Positions 1-27,960 of a stretch of 64,000 nt of DNA are shown one piece after another. The notes beneath the pieces are model-generated. The model made no database searches. It saw only the letters and a list, made by a program, of their open reading frames with translations, and was not told the DNA's origin. The stretch is from Euglena gracilis (Eukaryota). The stretch spans positions 27,578,123 to 27,642,122 of the forward strand of contig CP154954.1 in NCBI GenBank assembly GCA_039621445.1. Reading direction: 5' to 3'. Both the position numbers and the translations under genes were made by a program. Each line of letters begins with the position of its first letter. Position 1 is the stretch's first letter.

Positions 1-449
1 GACCCGTTGGTTTCATGATTGTCGTGGTTTAATGGTAAGAAAAACATGCAGCCGGAAGGTTGGTTGCAAAAAATGAGCACATTTAGATGGGTGCATTCGA
101 CCATTCCGGGGGACATTTACCAGGTCAGCCCAGGTTACCATGTAAAAATGGACCAAATTGGGCCTTACTCCGAGTTAAGGAATGGGTGTTCCAGGAGGCC
201 TCCAAAGTCAGGGGACCCGTTGGTTTCATGATTGTCGTGGTTTAATGGTAAGAAAACATGCAGCGGGAATGTTGGTTGCAAGAAATGAGCACATTTAGAT
301 GGGTGCATTCGACCATTCCGGGGGACATTTACCAGGTCAGCCCAGGTTACCATGTAAAAATGGACCAAATTGGGCCTTACTCCGAGTAACCGAATGGGTG
401 TTCCAGGAGGCCTCCAAAGTCAGGGGACCCGTTGGTTTCATGATTGTCG

Positions 450-1300
450 TGGTTTAATGGTAAGAAAAACATGCAGCGGGAATGTTGGTTGCAAGAAATG
501 AGCACATTTCGATGGGTGCATTCGACCATTCCGGGGGACATTTACCAGGTCAGCCCAGGTTACCACGTAAAAATGGACCAAATTGGGCCTTACTCCGAGT
601 AACCGAATGGGTGTTCCAGGAGGCCTCCAAAGTCAGGGGACCCGTTGGTTTCATGATTGTCGTGGTTTAATGGTAAGAAAGACATGCAGCCGGAAGGTTG
701 GTTGCAAGAAATGAGCAGATTTAGATGGGTGCATTCGACCATTCCGGGGGACATTTACCAGGTCAGCCCAGGTTACCATGTAAAAATGGACCAAATTGGG
801 CCTTACTCCGAGTTACCTAATGGGTGTTCCAGGAGGCCTCCAAAGTCAGGGGACCCGTTGGTTTCATGATTGTCGTGGTTTAATGGTAAGAAAAACATGC
901 AGCGGGAATGTTGGTTGCAAGAAATGAGCACATTTCGATGGGTGCATTCGACCATTCCGGGGGACATTTACCAGGTCAGCCCAGGTTACCACGTAAAAAT
1001 GGACCAAATTGGGCCTTACTCCGAGTAACCGAATGGGTGTTCCAGGAGGCCTCCAAAGTCAGGGGACCCGTTGGTTTCATGATTGTCGTGGTTTAATGGT
1101 AAGAAAGACATGCAGCCGGAAGGTTGGTTGCAAGAAATGAGCAGATTTAGATGGGTGCATTCGACCATTCCGGGGGACATTTACCAGGTCAGCCCAGGTT
1201 ACCATGTAAAAATGGACCAAATTGGGCCTTACTCCGAGTTACCTAATGGGTGTTCCAGGAGGCCTCCAAAGTCAGGGGACCCATTGGTTTCATGATTGTT
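450..1300 (+). repeat. Dimeric (426-bp) higher-order duplication within the 213-bp array
   Basis: Private variants ACATTTCGATG, TACCACGTAA, AAGACATG and TTACCTAAT each occur twice, 426 bp apart. Identical ORF pairs at 482/908 and 657/1083. Confidence 0.9.
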
Positions 1301-1719
1301 GTGGTTTAATGGTAAGAAAAACATGCAGCGGGAATGTCGGTTGCAAGAAATGAGCAGATTTAGATGGGTGCATTCGACCATTCCGGGTGACATTTACCAG
1401 GTCAGCCCAGGTTACCATGTAAAAATGGACCAAATTGGGCCTTACTCCGAGTAACCGAATGGGTGTTCCAGGAGGCCTCCAAAGTCAGGGGACCCGTTGG
1501 TTTCATGATCGTCGTGGTTTAATGGTAAGAAAAACATGCAGCCGGAAGGTTGGTTGCAAGAAATGAGCAGATTTAGATGGGTGCATTCGACCATTCCGGG
1601 GGACATTTACCAGGTCAGCCCAGGTTACCATGTAAAAATGGACCAAATTGGGCCTTACTCCGAGTTACCGAATGGGTGTTCCAGGAGGCCTCCAAAGTCA
1701 GGGGACCCGTTGGTTTCAT

Positions 1720-4060
1720 GATCGTCGTGGATTAATGGTAAGAAAAACATGCAGCCGGAAGGTTGGTTGCAAGAAATGAGCAGATTTAGATGGGTGCATG
1801 CGACCATTCCGGGGGACATTTACCAGGTCATCCCAGGTTACCATGTAAAAATGGACCAAATTGGGCCTTACTCCGAGTAACCGAATGGGTGTTCCAGGAG
1901 GCCTCCAAAGTCAGGGGACCCGTTGGTTTCATGATCGTCGTGGTTTAATTGTAAGAGAAACATGCAGCCGGAAGGTTGGTTGCAAGAAATGAGCAGATTT
2001 AGATGGGTGCATTCGACCATTCCGGGGGACATTTACCAGGTCAGCCCAGGTTACCATGTAAAAATGGACCAAATTGGGCCGTACTCCGAGTTACCGAATG
2101 GGTGTTCCAGGAGGCCTCCAAAGTCCGGGGACCCGTTGGTATCATGATTGTCGTGATTTAATAATAAGAAAAACATGCAGCCGGAAGGTTTGTTGCAAGA
2201 AATGAGCAGATTTAGATGGGTGCATTTGACCATTCCGGGGGACATTTACCAGGTCAGCCCAGGTTACCATGTAAAAATGGACCAAATTGGGCCGTACTCC
2301 GAGTTACCGAACGGGTGTTCCAGGAGGCCTCCAAAGTCAGGGGACCCGTTGGTTTCATGATTGTCGTGGTTTAATGGTAAGAAAAACATGCAGCCGGAAG
2401 TTTGGTTGCAAGAAATGAGCACATTTAGATGGGTGCATTCGACCATTCCGGGGGACATTTACCGGGTCAGCCCAGGTTACCATGTAAAAATGGACCAAAT
2501 TGGGCCTTACTCCGAGTAACCGAATGGGTGTTCCAGGAGGCCTCCAAAGTCAGGGGACCCGTTGGTTTCATGATTGTCGTGGTTTAAAAGGGAAGAAAAA
2601 CATGCAGCCGGAAGGTTGGTTGCAAGAAATGAGCAGATTTAGATGGGTGCATTCGACCATTCCGGGGGACATTTACCAGGTCAGCCCAGGTTACCATGTA
2701 AAAATGGACCAAATTGGGCCTTACTCCGAGTTGCCGAATGGTTGTTCCAGGAGGCCTCCAAAGTCAGGGGACCCGTTGTTTTCATGATTGTTGTGGTTTA
2801 ATGGTAAGAAAAAACATGCAGCGGGAATGTCGGTTGCAAGAAATGAGCAGATTTAGATGGGTGCATTCGACCATTCCGGGGGACATTTACCAGGTCTGCC
2901 CAGGTTACCATGTAAAAATGGACCAATTTGGGCCTTACTCCGAGTAACCGAATGGGTGTTCCAGGAGGCCTCCAAAGTCAGGGGACCCGTTGGTTTCATG
3001 ATCGTCGTGGTTTAATGGTAAGAAAAACATGCAGCCGGAAGGTTGGTTGCAAGAAATGAGCAGATTTAGATGGGTGCATGCGACCATTCCGGGGGACATT
3101 TACCAGGTCAGCCCAGGTTACCATGTAAAAATGGACCAAATTGGGCCTTACTCCGAGTAACCGAATGGGTGTTCCAGGAGGCCTCCAAAGTCAGGGGACC
3201 CGTTGGTTTCATGATCGTCGTGGTTTAATTGTAAGAGAAACATGCAGCCGGAAGGTTCGTTGCAAGAAATGAGCAGATTTAGATGGGTGCATTCGACCAT
3301 TCCGGGGGACATTTACCAGGTCAGCCCAGGTTACCATGTAAAAATGGACCAAATTGGGCCGTACTCCGAGTTACCGAATGGGTGTTCCAGGAGGCCTCCA
3401 AAGTCCGGGGACCCGTTGGTATCATGATTGTCGTGATTTAATAGTAAGAAAAACATGCAGCCGGAAGGTTGGTTGCAAGAAATGAGCAGATTTAGATGGG
3501 TGCATTTGACCATTCCGGGGGACATTTACCAGGTCAGCCCAGGTTACCATGTAAAAATGGACCAAATTGGGCCGTACTCCGAGTTACCGAACGGGTGTTC
3601 CAGGAGGCCTCCAAAGTCAGGGGACCCGTTGGTTTCATGATTGTCGTGGTTTAATGGTAAGAAAAACATGCAGCCGGAAGTTTGGTTGCAAGAACTGAGC
3701 ACATTTAGATGGGTGCATTCGACCATTCCGGGGAACATTTACCGGGTCAGCCCAGGTTACCATGTAAAAATGGACCAAATTGGGCCTTACTCCGAGTAAC
3801 CGAATGGGTGTTCCAGGAGGCCTCCAAAGTCAGGGACCCGTTGGTTTCATGATTGTCGTGGTTTAAAGGTAAGAAAAACATGCAGCCGGAAGGTTGGTTG
3901 CAAGAAATGAGCAGATTTAGATGGGTGCATTCGACCATTGCGGGGGACATTTACCAGGTCAGCCCAGGTTACCATGTAAAAATGGACCAAATTGGGCCTT
4001 ACTCCGAGTTGCCGAATGGGTGTTCCAGGAGGCCTCCAAAGTCCGGGGACCCGTTGGTAT
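1720..4060 (+). repeat. Six-monomer (1280-bp) higher-order duplication within the left 213-bp array
   Basis: Variants CATGCGACC, TTAATTGTAAGAGAAA, GTATCATG/GTGATTT, AAGTTTGG and GAGTTGCCG recur in the same order about 1280 bp apart (ORF pairs 1962/3242, 2175/3455). Boundaries are approximate. Confidence 0.85.
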
Positions 4061-5063
4061 CATGATTGTCGTGATTTAATGGTAAGAAAAACATGCAGCC
4101 GGAAGGTTGGTTGCAAGAAATGAGCAGATTTAGATGGGTGCATGCGACCATTCCGGGGGACATTTACCAGGTCAGCCCAGGTTACCATGTAAAAATGGAC
4201 CAAATTGGGCCGTACTCCGAGTTACCGAACGGGTGTTCCAGGAGGCCTCCAAAGTCAGGGGACCCGTTGGTTTCATGATTGTCGTGGTTTAATGGTAAGA
4301 AAACCATGCAGCGGGAAGGTTGGTTGCAAGAAATGAGCAGATTTAGATGGGTGCATTCAACCTTTCCGGGGGACATTTATTTACCAGGTCAGCCCAGGTT
4401 ACCATGTAAAAATGGACCAAATTGGGCCTTACTCCGAGTAACCGAATGGGTGTTCCAGGAGGACTCCAAAGTCAGGGGACCCGTTGTTTTCATGATTGTC
4501 GTGGTTTAATGGTAAGAAAAACATGCAGCCGGAAGGTTGGTTGCAAGAAATGAGCAGATTTAGATGGGTGCATTCGACCATTCCGGGGGACATTTACCAG
4601 GTCAGCCCAGGTTACCATGTAAAAATGGACCAAATTGGGCCTTACTCCGAGTAACCGAATGGGTGTTCCAGGAGGCCTCCAAAGTCAGGGGACCCGTTGG
4701 TTTCATGATTGTCGTGGTTTGATGGTAAGAAAACCATGCAGCGGGAAGGTTGGTTGCAAGAAATGAGCAGATTTAGATGGGTGCATTCAACCTTTCCGGG
4801 GGACATTTATTTACCAGGTCAGCCCAGGTTACCATGTAAAAATGGACCAAATTGGGCCTTACTCCTTTGAGTGCCCATTCTTGGCTTGGACCCAGTGTCT
4901 CACTTTTGACTTTTCTTGCATTGAACTTTTCAAAACTTCCAGCACAGCACAAACAAAGACAGGACTTCTTGGAGGTTCAATCAGTGACCCACGCAACCAG
5001 TGTAAGCATTTTGCTCCCTACAGAACAATTGGCGTTCTTCAATGACTTTGCAATCTTGAATTA

Positions 5064-5162
5064 GGAATTGCAGACTTGGCGAATCCTACACCCCCTTCCT
5101 TCAGAACATTCCTTGGAATGTCAATTGGCATTCGCAGGTCAAATTTGCCAAGTCGAAATTCC
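5064..5162. repeat. Concentric nested inverted repeat (hairpin 1 of spacer)
   Basis: ACATTCC-TT-GGAATGT (5106-5121) lies inside GACTTGGCGAAT (5073-5084)/ATTTGCCAAGTC (5143-5154, 11/12 complementary), which lies inside GGAATT (5064-5069)/AATTCC (5157-5162). All are centred at 5113-5114. Confidence 0.85.
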
Positions 5163-5192
5163 AACCTCGCCCTGATCTGCCCGCCCCCCCCC

Positions 5193-5289
5193 CATGTGCC
5201 CGAATTGTCACCCCCCCCTGGGCAGTCATCCCTGGGCCCTGGGGGGGGGCCAACAAAAATGTACCCTGGAGGGAATTCGGGCAATCATG
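5193..5289. repeat. Nested inverted repeat (hairpin 2 of spacer)
   Basis: Perfect 10-bp inverted repeat TGCCCGAATT (5197-5206)/AATTCGGGCA (5274-5283), flanked by CATG on both sides. It encloses C8-T-GGGC (5211-5223)/GCCC-T-G9 (5236-5249). Confidence 0.85.
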
Positions 5290-5568
5290 AAAAGGGGATC
5301 CTGATTTTTGTGCCCAGAATTGGGCAGCCAAAAAAAGGAATTGTGGGCAAAAATCTGGGCAAGGCGGAAAATCTTCAGCTCCAAATGTCTTTATCCACTG
5401 GTCAGTTATGTGCCCTGCCGTACATCTGTGCCCATGTGGGCAAAACAGAGAACCCCCCCCCTTTTTGCCCTGACCCTTCCCCAACTGGGCAATGACATCC
5501 ATCTCTTTGGTGCCTGCCCTGTTTGAGGGAAATCTGGGCAAATCAAAAGGGGAAAACCCAAAAGCAAA

Positions 5569-8500
5569 GGAGTAAGGCCCAATTTGGTCCATTTTTACAT
5601 GGTAACCTGGGCTGACCTGGTAAATGTCACCCGGAATGGTCGAATGCACTCATCTAAATCTGCTCATTTCTTGCAACCAACATTCCGGCTGCATGTTTCT
5701 CTACCATTAAACCACGACAATCATGAAACCAACGGGTCCCCTGACTTTGGAGGCCTCCTGGAACACCCATTCGGTTACTCGGAGTAAGGCCCAATTTGGT
5801 CCATTTTTACATGGTAACCTGGGCTGACCTGGTAAATGTCCCCCGGAATGGTCGAATGCACCCATCTAAATGTGCTCATTTCTTGCAACCAACCTTCCGG
5901 CTGCATGTTTTTCTTACCATTAAACCACGACAATCATGAAACCAACGGGTCCCCTGACTTTGGAGGCCTCCTGGAACACCCATTCGGTTACTCGGAGTAA
6001 GGCCCAATTTGGTCCATTTTTACATGGTAACCTGGGCTGACCTGGTAAATGTCCCCCGGAATGGTCGAATGCACCCATCTAAATCTGCTCATTTCTTGCA
6101 ACCAACCTTCCGGCTGCATGTTTTTCTTACCATTAAACCACGACAATCATGAAACCAACGGGTCCCCTGACTTTGGAGGCCGCCTGGAACACCCATTCGG
6201 TTACTCGGAGTAAGGCCCAATTTGGTCCATTTTTACATGGTAACCTGGGCTGACCTGGTAAATGTCCGCCGGAATGGTCGAATGCACTCATCTAAATGTG
6301 CTCATTTCTTGCAACCAACATTCCCGCTGCATGTTTCCCTTACCATTAAACCACTACAATCATGAAACCAACGGGTCCCCTGACTTTGGAGGCCTCCTGG
6401 AACACCCATTCGGTTACTCGGAGTAAGGCCCAATTTGGTCCATTTTTACATGGTAACCTGGGCTGACCTGGTAAATGTCCCCCGGAATGGTCGAATGCAC
6501 CCATCTAAATCTGCTCATTTCTTGCAACCAACCTTCCGGCTGCATGTTTTTCTTACCATTAAACCACGACAATCATGAAACCAACGGGTCCCCTGACTTT
6601 GGAGGCCTCCTGGAACAACCGTTTGGTTACTCGGAGTAAGGCCCAATTTGGTCCATTTTTACATGGTAACCTGGGCTGACCTGGTAAATGTCCCCCGGAA
6701 TGGTCGAATGCACCCATCTAAATGTGCTCATTTCTTGCAACCAACATTCCCGCTGCATGTTTTCCTTACCATTAAACCACTACAATCATGAAACCAACGG
6801 GTCCCCTGACTTTGGAGGCCTCCTGGAACACCCATTCGGTTACTCGGAGTAAGGCCCAATTTGGTCCATTTTTACATGGTAACCTGGGCTGACCTGGTAA
6901 ATGTCCCCCGGAATGGTCGAATGCACCCATCTAAATCTGCTCATTTCTTGCAACCAACCTTCCGGCTGCATGTTTTTCTTACCATTAAACCACGACAATC
7001 ATGAAACCAACGGGTCCCCTGACTTTGGAGGCCGCCTGGAACACGCATTCGGTTACTCGGAGTAAGGCCCAATTTGGTCCATTTTTACATGGTAACCTGG
7101 GCTGACCTGGTAAATGTCCCCCGGAATGGTCGAATGCACCCATCTAAATGTGCTCATTTCTTGCAACCAACATTCCCGCTGCATGTTTTCCTTACCATTA
7201 AACCACTACAATCATGAAACCAACGGGTCCCCTGACTTTGGAGGCCTCCTGGAACACCCATTCGGTTACTCGGAGTAAGGCCCAATTTGGTCCATTTTTA
7301 CATGGTAACCTGGGCTGACCGGTAAATGTCCCCCGGAATGGTCGAATGCACCCATCTAAATGTGCTCATTTCTTGCAACCAACCTTCCGGCTGCATGTTT
7401 TTCTTACCATTAAACCACGACAATCATGAAACCAACGGGTCCCCTGACTTTGGAGGCCTCCTGGAACACCCATTCGGTTACTCGGAGTAAGGCCCAATTT
7501 GGTCCATTTTTACATGGTAACCTGGGCTGACCTGGTAAGTGTCCCCCGGGATGGTCGACTGCACCCATCTAAATCTGCTCATTTCTTGCAACCAACCTTC
7601 CGGCTGCATGTTTTTCTTACCATTAAACCACGAAAATCATGAAACCAACGGGTCCCCTGACTTTGGAGGCCGCCTGGAACACCCATTCGGTTACTCGGAG
7701 TAAGGCCCAATTTGGTCCATTTTTACATAGTAACCTGGGCTGACCTGGTAAATGTCCGCCGGAATGGTCGAATGCACCCATCTAAATGTGCTCATTTCTT
7801 GCAACCAACATTCCCGCTGCATGTTTTCCTTACCATTAAACCACTACAATCATGAAACCAACGGGTCCCCTGACTTTGGAGGCCTCCTGGAACACCCATT
7901 CGGTTACTCGGAGTAAGGCCCAATTTGGTCCATTTTTACATGGTAACCTGGGCTGACCTGGTAAATGTCCCCCGGAACGGTCGAATGCACCCGTCTAAAT
8001 GTGCTCATTTCTTGCAACCAGCCTTCCGGCTGCATGTTTTCTTACCATTAAACCAGGGACAATCATGAAACCAACGGGTCCCCTGACTTTGGAGGCCGCC
8101 TGGAACACCCATTCGGTAAGTCGGAGTAAGGCCCAATTTGGTCCATTTTTACATGGTAACCTGGGCTGACCTGGTAAATGTCCGCCGGAATGGTCGAATG
8201 CACCCATCTAAATGTGCTCATTTCTTGCAACCAACATTCCCGCTGCATGTTTTCCTTACCATTAAACCACTACAATCATGAAACCAACGGGTCCCCTGAC
8301 TTTGGGGGCCTCCTGGAACACCCATTCGGTAACTCGGAGTAAGGCCCAATTTGGTCCACTTTTACATGGTAACCTGGGCTGACCTGGTAAACGTCCCCCG
8401 GGATGGTCGAACTGCACCCATCTAAATGTGCTCATTTCTTGCAACCAACCTTCCGGCTGCGTGTTTCTCTACCATTAAACCACGACAATCATGAAACCAA

Positions 8501-23500: not shown

Positions 23501-26206
23501 CGAATGCACTCATCTAAATCTGCTCATTTCTTGCAACCAACCTTCCGGCTGCATGTTTTTCTTACCATTAAACCACGGCAATCATGAAACCAACGGGTCC
23601 CCTGACTTTGGAGGCCTCCTGGAACACCCATTCGGTAACTCGGAGTAAGGCCCAATTTGGTCCATTTTTACATGGTAACCTGGGCTGACCTGGTAAATGT
23701 CCCCCGGAATGGTCGAATGCACCCATCTAAATCTGCTCATTTCTTGCAACCAACCTTCCGGCTGCATGTTTTTCTTACCATTAAACCACGACAATCATGA
23801 AACCAACGGGTCCCCTGACTTTGGAGGCCTCCTGGAACACCCATTCGGTAAGTCGGAGTAAGGCCCAATTTGGTCCATTTTTACATGGTAACCTGGGCTG
23901 ACCTGGTAAATGTCCCCCGGAATGGTCGAATGCACCCATCTAAATGTGCTCATTTCTTGCAACCAACATTCCCGCTGCATGTTTTTCTTACCATTAAACC
24001 ACGACAATCATGAAACCAACGGGTCCCCTGACTTTGGAGGCCGCCTGGAACACCCATTCGGTAAGTCGGAGTAAGGCCCAATTTGGTCCATTTTTACATG
24101 GCGACCTGGGCTGACCTGGTAAATGTTACCCGGAATGGTCGAATGCACCCATCTAAATGTGCTCATTTCTTGCAACCAGCATTCCCGCTGTCTGTTTTTC
24201 TTACCATTAAACCACGAAAATCATGAAACCAACGGGTCCCCTGACTTTGGAGGCCTCCTGGAACACCCATTCGGTTACTCGGAGTAAGGCCCAATTTGGT
24301 CCATTTTTACATGGTAACCTGGGCTGACCTGGTAAATGTCCCCCGGAATGGTCGAATGCACTCATCTAAATCTGCTCATTTCTTGCAACCAACCTTCCGG
24401 CTGCATGTTTCTCTACCATTAAACCACGACAATCATGAAACCAACGGGTCCCCTGACTTTGGAGGCCTCCTGGAACACCCATTCGGTTACTCGGAGTAAG
24501 GCCCAACTGGGTCCTTTTTTACATGGTAACCTGGGCTGACCTGGTAAATGTCCCCCGGAATGGTCGAATGCACCCATCTAAATGTGCTCATTTCTTGCAA
24601 CCAACATTCCCGCTGCATGTTTTTCTTACCATTAAACCACGACAATCATGACACCAACGGGTCCCCTGACTTTGGAGGCCTCCTGGAACACCCATTCGGT
24701 TACTCGGAGTAAGGCCCAACTGGGTCCTTTTTTACATGGTAACCTGGGCTGACCTGGTAAATGTCCCCCGGAATGGTCGAATGCACCCATCTAAATGTGC
24801 TAATTTCTTGCAACCAACATTCCCGCTGCATGTTTTTCTTATCATTAAACCACGACAATCATGAAACCAACGGGTCCCCTGACTTTGGAGGCCGCCTGGA
24901 ACACCCATTCGGTAAGTCGGAGTAAGGCCCAATTTGGTCCATTTTTACATGGTAACCTGGGCTGACCTGGTAAATGTCCCCCGGAATGGTCGAATGCACC
25001 CATCTAAATGTGCTAATTTCTTGCAACCAACATTCCCGCTGCATGTTTTTCTTACCATTAAACCACGACAATCATGACACCAACGGGTCCCCTGACTTTG
25101 GAGGCCTCCTGGAACACCCATTCGGTTACTCGGAGTAAGGCCCAACTGGGTCCTTTTTTACATGGTAACCTGGGCTGACCTGGTAAATGTCCCCCGGAAT
25201 GGTCGAATGCACCCATCTAAATGTGCTCATTTCTTGCAACCAACATTCCCGCTGCATGTTGCCCTTACCTTTAAACCACGACAATCATGAAACCAACGGG
25301 TCCCCTGACTTTGGAGGCCTTCTGGAACACCCATTCGGTTACTCGGAGCAAGGCCCAATTTGGTACATTTTTGCATGGTAACCTGGGCTGACCTAGTAAA
25401 TGTCCCCCGGAATGGTCGAATGCACCCATCTAAATGTGCTCATTTCTTGCAACCAACATTCCCGCTGCATGTTTTTCTTATCATTAAACCACGACAATCA
25501 TGAAACCAACGGGGTCCCCTGACTTTGGAGGCCGCCTGGAACACCCATTCGGTAAGTCGGAGTAAGGCCCAATTTGGTCCATTTTTACATGGTAACCTGG
25601 GCTGACCTGGTAAATGTCCCCCGGAATGGTCGAATGCACCCATCTAAATGTGCTAATTTCTTGCAACCAACATTCCCGCTGCATGTTTTTCTTACCATTA
25701 AACCACGACAATCATGACACCAACGGGTCCCCTGACTTTGGAGGCCTCCTGGAACACCCATTCGGTTACTCGGAGTAAGGCCCAACTGGGTCCTTTTTTA
25801 CATGGTAACCTGGGCTGACCTGGTAAATGTCCCCCGGAATGGTCGAATGCACCCATCTAAATGTGCTCATTTCTTGCAACCAACATTCCCGCTGCATGTT
25901 GCCCTTACCTTTAAACCACGACAATCATGAAACCAACGGGTCCCCTGACTTTGGAGGCCTTCTGGAACACCCATTCGGTTACTCGGAGCAAGGCCCAATT
26001 TGGTACATTTTTGCATGGTAACCTGGGCTGACCTAGTAAATGTCCCCCGGAATGGTCGAATGCACCCATCTAAATGTGCTCATTTCTTGCAACCAACATT
26101 CCCGCTGCATGTGTTTCTTACCATTAAACCACGACAATCATGAAACCAACGGGTCCCCTGACTTTGGAGGCCTCCTGGAACACCCATTCGGTTACTCGGA
26201 GTAAGG
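5569..26206 (-). repeat. 213-bp satellite array, right arm, inverted relative to the left arm (about 97 monomers)
   Basis: Reverse complement of the left monomer (GGAGTAAGGCCCAATTTGGTCCATTTTTACATGG...). It begins with GGAGTAAGG at 5569-5577 and ends with GGAGTAAGG at 26198-26206. Confidence 0.98.
24840..26120 (-). repeat. Trimeric (640-bp) tandem duplication at the distal end of the right 213-bp array
   Basis: Variants GTTGCCCTTACCTTT, GGAGCAAGG, GGTACATTTTTGC, ACCTAGTAAA and CATGACACC recur 640 bp apart (ORF pairs 24945/25585, 25187/25827). Confidence 0.9.
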
Positions 26207-27960
26207 ACACTTTGGTCAAAGTGGCCTTGTCCAGGGACACTTTGGTCAAAGTGGCCTTGGCCAGGGACACTTCGGTCAAAGTGGCCTTGGCCAGGGACAC
26301 TTTGGTCAAAATGGCCTTCGCCAGGGACACTTTGGTCAAAGTGTCCTTAGCCAGATACACTTTGGTCAAAGTGGCCTTGGCCAGGGACACTTTGGTCAGA
26401 GTGGCATTGGCCAGGGACACTTTGGTCAAAGTGGCCTTGGCCAGGGACACTTTGGTCAAAGTGGCCTTGGCCAGGGACACTTTGGTCAAAGTGGCCTTGG
26501 CCAGGGACACTTTGGTCAAAGTGGCCTTGGCCAGGGACAATTTAGTCAAAGTGGCCTTGTCCAGGGACACTTTGGTCAAATTGGACTTGGCCCGGGACAC
26601 TTTGGTCAAAGCGGCCTTGGCCAGGGACACTTTGGTCAATGTGGCCTTGGCCAGGGACACTTTGGTCAAAGTGGCCTTGGCCAGGGACACTTTGGTCAAA
26701 TTGGCCTTGGCCAGGGACACTTTGGTCAAAGTGGCCTTGGCCAGGGATCCTTTGGTCAAAGTGGCCTTGGCCAGGGACACTTTGGTCAAAGTGGCCTTGG
26801 CCAGGGACACTTTGGTCAAAGTGGCCTTGGCCAGGGATCCTTTGGTCAAAGTGGCCTTCGCCAGGGACACTTTGGTCAGAGTGGCATTGGCCAGGGACAC
26901 TTTGGTCAAAGTGGCCTTGGCCAGGGACACTTTGGTCAAAGTGGCCTTGGCCAGGGACACTTTGGTCAAAGTGGCCTTGGCCAGGGACACTTTGGTCAAA
27001 GTGGCCTTGGCCAGGGACACTTTAGTCAAAGTGGCCTTGTCCAGGGACACTTTGGTCAAATTGGCCTTGGCCCGGGACACTTTGGTCAAAGCGGCCTTGG
27101 CCAGGGACACTTTGGTCAATGTGGCCTTGGCCAGGGACACTTTGGTCAAAGTGGCCTTGGCCAGGGACACTTTGGTCAAAGCGGCCTTGGCCAGGGACAC
27201 TTTGGTCAAAGCGGCCTTGGGCAGGGGTCCTTTGGTCAAAGTGGCCTTGGCCAGGGACACTTTGGTCAAAGTGGACTTGGCTAGGGACACTTTGGTCAAA
27301 GTGGGATTGGCCAGGGACACTTTTGTCAAAGTGGCTTTGGCCAGGGACACTTTGGTCAAAGTGGCCTTGGCCAGGGACACTTTGGTCAAAGTGGCCTTGG
27401 CCAGGGACACTTTGGTCAAAGTTGCCTTGGCCAGGGACACTTTGGTCAAAGTGGCCTTGGCCAGGGATCCTTTGGTCAAAGTGGCCTTGGCCAGGGACAC
27501 TTTGGTCAAAGTGGCCTTGGCCAGGGACACTTTGGTCAAAGTGGCCTTGGCCAGGGATCCTTTGGTCAAAGTGGCCTTGGCCAGGGACACTTTGGTCAAA
27601 GTGGCCTTGGCCAGGGACACTTTGGTCAAAGTGGCCTTGGCCAGGGATCCTTTGGTCAAAGTGGCCTTCGCCAGGAACACTTTGGTCAGAGTGGCATTGG
27701 CCAGGGACACTATGGTCAAAGTGGCCTTGGCCAGGGACACTTTGGTCAAAGTGGCCTTGGCCAGGGACACTTTGGTCAAAGTGGCCTTGGCCAGGGACAC
27801 TTTGGTCAAAGTGGCCTTGGCCAGGGACACTTTGGTCAAAGTGGCCTTGGCCAGGGACCCTTTGGTCAAAGTGGCCTTGGCCAGGGACACTTTGGTCAAA
27901 GTGGCCTTGGCCAGGGACACTTTGGTCTAAGTGGCCTTGGCCAGGGACACTTTGGTCAAA

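Follow-up and report, generated by a model that had tools for sequence, protein, structure and literature searches.

How did a satellite array of Euglena gracilis come to reverse its orientation around a short, unrelated centre, with both halves of the array meeting that centre at one and the same nucleotide of the repeat unit? The question is raised by a 64-kb stretch of contig CP154954.1 (assembly GCA_039621445.1, positions 27,578,123 to 27,642,122 of the forward strand), hereafter the window, whose own numbering is used throughout and to which the array analyses refer. Tandem repeats called by Tandem Repeats Finder (TRF) make up nearly the whole window, and the two arms of a 213-bp satellite, lying on either side of a 703-bp spacer (4866–5568), were segmented against the consensus monomer of the array. 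The left arm (1–4865, minus strand; TRF period 213, 22.8 copies, 95% matches) is composed of 22 whole monomers plus a 171-nt piece cut at the window start, and the right arm (5569–26197, plus strand) of exactly 97 whole monomers, the corresponding TRF array (5569–26217, 97.1 copies, 96% matches) running in the orientation opposite to that of the left arm. Matches to the monomer consensus are on the minus strand in 23 of 23 cases within 1–4865 and on the plus strand in 97 of 97 cases within 5569–26197. The locus is a satellite-array strand switch, one satellite family lying on both sides in opposite orientation, and neither a further orientation switch nor a second copy of the 703-bp spacer is present within the window. 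The answer to which we lean, with confidence a little below even, is that the locus is an old fold-back-type inversion junction inside the satellite array.

At nucleotide level, the left junction (4865/4866) reads ...GGGCCTTACTCC/TTTGAG and the right junction (5568/5569) reads ...AGCAAA/GGAGTAAGGCCC, the slash marking the edge of the satellite; read outward, both spacer ends are CAAA/GGAGTAAGG. Segmentation places monomer position 1 at the innermost base of both arms, the right junction being ambiguous by 1 nt because other copies of the spacer repeat likewise continue with a G where 5569 stands here. The symmetry extends beyond the satellite edge. The segments 4809–4869 and 5565–5625 form a perfect inverted repeat of 61 nt, 100% complementary and with its arms 695 nt apart, the left copy comprising 57 nt of satellite followed by TTTG (4866–4869), and the repeat thus reaches 4 bp (TTTG/CAAA, the latter at 5565–5568) into the spacer. 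With the base composition of the spacer, an inverted extension of at least 4 bp arises by chance with p = 0.0038, and the 15-mer CAAAGGAGTAAGGCC across the junction occurs in the window at the two junctions only, versus 0.02 occurrences expected.

These observations agree with a sequence-only reading of the locus, which had reported the same junction sequences, had placed both joints at the same monomer nucleotide in inverted orientation, and had pointed out the additional 4-bp match. From a chance of about 1 in 213 that a random inversion would keep the monomer phase, that reading went on to propose that the arrays had been attached by a register-specific process. The calculation presupposes that the two junctions are independent and no longer holds if one of them is an inverted copy of the other. 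Coincidence is indeed no explanation, and one process links both junctions. A simpler account, however, is that the inverted repeat crosses from the satellite into the spacer and that the register was thereby inherited rather than selected. The spacer, which the same reading had called unique, is single in the 64-kb window but belongs, in contigs of public sequencing runs, to a high-copy dispersed repeat.

Of the 24 public runs listed, 20 hold part of 4700–5750 and 14 hold at least half of its sampled words; 16 studies are represented, nearly all labelled with one organism, and contigs of 4 of the 24 runs were compared over 4780–5650. In runs X1 and X2, the summed word depth of the spacer is ~5 × 10^4 to 5 × 10^5 across 4870–5559, and that of the satellite flanks is 2.5–8.7 × 10^6; the satellite exceeds the spacer in summed depth by more than 10-fold in these two runs and by ~10^3-fold in run X14. 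Most contigs matching the spacer region in X1 and X2 are 90–99% alike, and single spacer sites show variant letters in 47–65 contigs (at position 4911, in 47 contigs of X1 and 61 of X2). On these data, the spacer belongs to a high-copy family of dispersed repeats. In X14, contig depth is zero over 5200–5319, a stretch that X1 and X2 cover, and the spacer-to-satellite depth ratio is ~100-fold lower than in X1 and X2, a contrast that points to differences between individuals or library types. Homopolymer runs of C10, C8 and G9 lie in the spacer at 5170–5250. The RNA run X24 yielded 1 partly fitting read among the 12.9 million read (~5% of the run), a figure that carries no inference on transcription.

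The two ends of the spacer differ in kind. Contigs stop fitting exactly at 4866 (21 in X1 and 21 in X2), and their continuations beyond that point disagree with one another (agreement 0.45 and 0.38, respectively); such heterogeneous flanks identify 4866 as the natural end of the repeat family, other copies beginning at the same nucleotide. At the opposite end, 16 contigs of X1 and 14 of X2 read through 5569 into a single shared continuation (agreement 0.97 and 0.94, respectively). Position 5568 is therefore internal to the family, the copy in the window is truncated, and the CAAA that ends at 5568 is not the end of a DNA. In the contig consensus, the continuation of the other copies opens with a TGCCC...GGGCA palindrome, which is a plausible breakage site at the point of truncation.

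The same motif abounds within the spacer, where GGGCA/TGCCC is present in 16 copies in both orientations, although only 1.3 would be expected and none of 2000 shuffles gave more than 7; one of the copies is located 4 nt from the 4866 end. The motif often takes the form AATT(N)GGGCA, and near-perfect palindromes are seen at 5311–5326 and 5429–5442. Judged from its letters, the cluster resembles a set of protein-binding sites within a mobile element's subterminal region. The scans characterize the spacer as non-coding: it has 0 matches in Rfam at E ≤ 1 and 0 in a transfer RNA (tRNA) scan, and Pfam assigns 0 families to the 3 longest of its 17 stop-to-stop open reading frames (ORFs) of at least 40 aa. 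Neither a poly(A) tail nor, with Pfam applied to those 3 of 17 ORFs, a reverse-transcriptase ORF or an endonuclease motif is found in it. A terminal inverted repeat longer than 4 bp was sought and rejected (end-versus-end local score 16 versus 13.7 ± 2.3, with 21% of 500 shuffles as high), as was kinship of the spacer with the satellite, to which its matches are 8–12 nt only with E ≥ 0.1. One exact pattern from the spacer and one from the satellite gave 0 matches in metagenome and viral contigs. A text search of the literature with pieces of both repeat units gave no match, and among publications on "213 bp" satellites none concerns this repeat, judged by their search-level descriptions.

The break, the hairpin priming and the order of events described here are what we infer from this anatomy. 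A copy of the dispersed repeat would have adjoined the satellite, with its natural end at 4866 set against ...CCTTACTCC. An internal break of the repeat, beside its own palindromic motif, would have generated a top-strand 3' end, ...GCAAA, at 5568. Once single-stranded, the CAAA 3' end (5565–5568, plus strand) would have folded back and paired over 4 bp with the TTTG at 4866–4869 of the same strand, the 4 nt with which the dispersed repeat begins and the putative microhomology partner of CAAA. Extension along the left arm would then have written GGAGTAAGG... from the exact nucleotide at which satellite and repeat meet, leaving a 695-nt loop as the asymmetric centre of a structure ordered as arm, TTTG, loop, CAAA and inverted arm. 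By this mechanism, the right junction would be the left junction copied in reverse, which would account for the identical phase as well as for the 4-bp match. In the top strand of the spacer, TTTG is found at only 9 places, and it is absent from the left-orientation monomer, according to the consensus as read by eye, so that a CAAA 3' end would have found few sites at which to pair and its pairing at this one would be a modest coincidence. Later array turnover by unequal exchange would have reshuffled each arm and could have erased the mirror between them.

The arms are no longer mirror images. Left monomer i was compared with right monomer i, the 171-nt partial left monomer being left out, and the mirror pairs differ at 3–16 alignment columns with a mean of 9.95, versus 8.93 ± 0.59 when monomers are paired at random; in 96% of 5000 permutations the mean was no higher than that of the mirror pairing, and no offset performed better. 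The innermost monomers, L01 and R01, differ at 15 columns. Mean distances between monomers are 8.9 columns from left to right arm, 9.5 for pairs drawn from the left arm and 7.2 for pairs drawn from the right arm, and each arm carries its own local higher-order repeats. In the left arm, monomers 1 and 3 from the spacer have a common 4-nt insertion and differ at 3 columns, monomers 6/12, 7/13 and 8/14 pair at period 6, and monomers 18 and 20 are identical; of the left-arm monomers, those close to the spacer stand further from the family (mean distance 11–13 columns) than the distal ones (6–8). A recent palindromic duplication, a fold-back read and an amplification chimera are all ruled out by the lack of mirror symmetry, from which we infer that the event is old.

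Independent sequence data exist for the left junction. A contig of X14 (record 9), from a run of another year and study, spans 102 nt (4840–4941) with 0 differences at a depth of 181. The lowest-depth contigs of the repeat listed for that run stand at ~3.5–3.8; the junction of satellite and repeat may thus be present in many copies, amplified with the array. Contigs that join the two arms head-to-head without the spacer are also present. One in X14 joins 4864 directly to 5569 (depth 15.7, side 22), another in the same run joins 4853 to 5576 (depth 353.7, side 37), and the spacer-less joints seen in X14 and X2 have sides below 30 nt except for the 4853-to-5576 joint, with depths all at or below 10^-4 of that of the satellite. 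They may be library chimeras, and we use them as weak hints only.

The position of the junctions within the monomer deserves separate consideration. The innermost base of each arm is the centre of TTACTC-G-GAGTAA, a 13-nt palindrome of the consensus monomer, the left half (TTACTC with centre base C) occupying 4859–4865 at the inner end of the left arm and the right half (centre base G with GAGTAA) occupying 5569–5575 at the inner end of the right arm. Among the short-loop palindromes of the monomer it ranks as the longest, with a stem of 6 and a loop of 1; the 4 others found have a stem of 5. A third array boundary is located at the outer end of the right arm, where a 98th monomer begins, runs for 9 nt (GGAGTAAGG; 26198–26206, plus strand) and passes into a 30-bp satellite, the last GG being common to both units. 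Measured from this small palindrome, the three array boundaries in the window therefore have monomer offsets of 0, 0 and +9. If the two spacer junctions are taken as a single event, the probability that two boundaries fall this close together (within 9 nt) by chance is ~0.09, which is suggestive only. That the 13-nt palindrome, TTACTC-N-GAGTAA, is a specific cleavage site, either for a nuclease of the GGGCA-rich repeat or for a hairpin-nicking enzyme, is a conjecture to which we give little credence.

Several points weigh against a fold-back origin. The arms are mirror copies for their first 61 nt only, and the duplication that the mechanism predicts is no longer visible. The proposed pairing site is exactly the first 4 nt of the repeat, a coincidence of ~1 in 9 at best. 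The position of the junction on the centre of the monomer's best palindrome is unexplained unless the repeat prefers that target. Record 9 of X14 has 26 nt on the satellite side of the left junction, below the 31-nt bridging rule, and the right junction (5568/5569) appears in no independent contig among the 24 of 55,184 pieces listed, which is not evidence of absence.

Some of these points are accommodated by rival accounts in which the shared nucleotide was reached by breakage or cutting. Two identical broken ends could have been fused, with a 703-bp piece of extrachromosomal repeat DNA or complementary DNA (cDNA) captured as filler; in one variant of this account, the satellite would have broken at the palindrome and been replicated in that state, with fusion of the sister chromatids to follow; in another, a "centre-break" mechanism, the break would have struck the middle of an existing head-to-head junction that had no spacer. 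The position of both arm ends on the centre of the longest short-loop palindrome would fit such an origin, as would the 213/30-bp boundary only 9 nt from that site, the contig of X14 in which 4864 meets 5569 directly, and the single natural repeat end of the spacer, as expected of a captured linear copy. An L1 insertion bridging sister chromatids head-to-head has been documented in tumours, in the part of the report relevant here (Rodriguez-Martin et al. 2020, Nat Genet, PMC7058536). However, the 4-bp inverted match, TTTG/CAAA, must then be a product of chance, at the p-value given above, and not a single nucleotide may have been lost at either end; the direct 4864-to-5569 joint, for its part, with a side of less than 30 nt and ~10^-6 of the depth of the satellite, may be a library chimera. 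We regard this fusion of ends as unlikely. Cutting in a fixed register is more doubtful still. An endonuclease of the inserted repeat, or a hairpin-specific nuclease, would have nicked the palindrome of the satellite; the 3' end freed by one nick would have primed the insertion, and a second strand, nicked identically, would have been joined or copied at the other end, so that both junctions of the resulting inversion lie where the enzyme cut. The use of the palindrome centre by both junctions, the natural repeat end at one of them and the third array boundary 9 nt away are all consistent with such a scheme. Yet the flanks that other copies show at 4866 are heterogeneous, and the repeat thus has no site specificity for the satellite; the spacer lacks endonuclease or reverse-transcriptase coding sequence in the Pfam scan of its 3 longest ORFs, and other head-to-head joints in X14 fall elsewhere in the monomer, such as that from 4853 to 5576.

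An error of assembly, by which two arrays of opposite orientation were falsely joined through a repeat fragment, is about as improbable as such nicking. The window consists almost entirely of satellite DNA, which is hard to assemble, and the right junction is without independent confirmation among the pieces listed; but false joining at random would not land on one monomer nucleotide twice and also yield a 4-bp inverted match, a fold-back read of a single molecule predicts mirror arms, which the differences between L01 and R01 contradict, and the left junction recurs without a difference in X14. The two origins proposed by the sequence-only reading fare worse, neither being supported. One was a foldback-type transposable element, with the 213-bp arrays as long terminal inverted repeats and the 703 bp as central loop. 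The Foldback (FB) transposons of Drosophila have inverted arms of tandem subrepeats around a central segment, and the form of the present locus, with inverted tandem-repeat arrays around a non-repeated centre, is alike. Unlike in FB transposons, however, other copies of the centre lack satellite arms, the arm unit is a major genomic satellite, and neither outer termini nor a target-site duplication are found in the window, beyond which the left outer end lies. An arm-centre-arm unit does not recur as a family: the other centre copies end at 4866 against heterogeneous, non-satellite flanks (the 21 and 21 contigs described above) and continue on the right into a longer element (16 and 14 contigs), and the centre has no terminal inverted repeat beyond 4 bp. 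The arms measure at least 4.9 kb and 20.6 kb, the right one running up against 38 kb of a different satellite without any terminal sequence in between, and the satellite outweighs the spacer in summed depth by more than 10-fold in X1 and X2 and ~10^3-fold in X14. This origin is very improbable. The other proposal, a telomere-style addition of repeats from a fixed template start onto both CAAA 3' ends of a free 703-bp DNA, does account for the CAAA/GGAGTAAGG read outward at both ends. It would require both spacer ends to be true DNA 3' ends, whereas the right CAAA is internal to the repeat family, as the contigs that continue through it demonstrate; moreover, the 213-bp satellite also forms ordinary long arrays, and no templating RNA or enzyme is indicated (0 Rfam matches in the spacer). 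We consider it hardly credible.

The outer parts of the window complete the picture. The right outer end of the satellite passes straight into the 30-bp satellite without a distinct terminus. This second satellite (26205–63997, plus strand; ~1260 copies, 92% matches by TRF) runs uninterrupted in one orientation, and its TRF array overlaps that of the right arm at 26205–26217. Its TRF consensus unit is made up of two small hairpin-forming palindromes, CACTTTG-GT-CAAAGTG and TGGCC-TT-GGCCA. At the boundary between the 213-bp and 30-bp arrays (26150–26260), the monomer start, GGCCCAATTTGGTCC, resembles the start of the 30-bp unit, GGACACTTTGGTCAA, and, going by this likeness of the unit starts, the two arrays may have been joined here through microhomology or may share an origin at this point.

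A fold-back origin finds its closest counterparts in human rearrangements. In the part of the study of Hermetz et al. (2014, PLoS Genet, PMC3907307) that bears on junctions, fold-back inverted duplications have single-copy spacers of 766–70,466 bp, with a 724-bp spacer also tabulated, and inverted microhomology of 2–8 bp at the spacer edge, 4 bp in 2 of 13 junctions. The present locus likewise has head-to-head arms, a short asymmetric spacer (695–703 bp; 695 nt between the arms, and present once in the window) and a 4-bp inverted microhomology, TTTG/CAAA, at the spacer/arm boundary. Unlike those cases, as far as they are described there, its arms are satellite arrays that are no longer mirrored, its loop is a truncated dispersed repeat, and it would be ancient and is fixed in the assembly rather than de novo. 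The locus works like a fold-back inverted duplication; we do not class it as a proven member because its arms, when compared, lack the mirror-copy feature.

Orientation switches within satellites are themselves familiar. In human arrays, where complete maps of the centromeres document them well, more than 200 inversion breakpoints are reported for HSat3B5 and beta-satellite arrays, and inversions and transposable-element insertions accumulate in divergent arrays, according to the relevant part of a preprint (Altemose et al. 2021, doi 10.1101/2021.07.12.452052). Similar to these strand switches, one satellite family is found here in both orientations within one block; organism and satellite are different, and the breakpoints, given as counts in that part of the preprint, are resolved here to the nucleotide. 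In the L1-bridged fold-back inversion of sister chromatids mentioned above, the breakpoints lie 5.5 kb apart, in the portion of that report that describes it (PMC7058536). Both cases place a short insertion between head-to-head copies of one region, a mobile element there and a putative one here, the insert here having one natural and one truncated end. In contrast to what is described for the L1 case, both junctions here are at the same nucleotide, and the spacer is devoid of a poly(A) tail, a reverse-transcriptase ORF or an endonuclease motif, with 3 of 17 ORFs scanned.

Taken together, the rearrangement is of an ordinary kind, and no new biology is needed to account for it; nor does the locus point to a new kind of element or enzyme. 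If the palindrome were a cleavage site after all, array ends, orientation switches and insertions of the GGGCA-rich repeat would recur genome-wide at one nucleotide, and there would be a register-specific way to build and flip satellite arrays. The points at which satellite arrays switch orientation have rarely been described at nucleotide level, and an old fold-back-type inversion at this locus would provide a concrete, testable example of how heterochromatic arrays may be inverted and then stabilised by an asymmetric centre.

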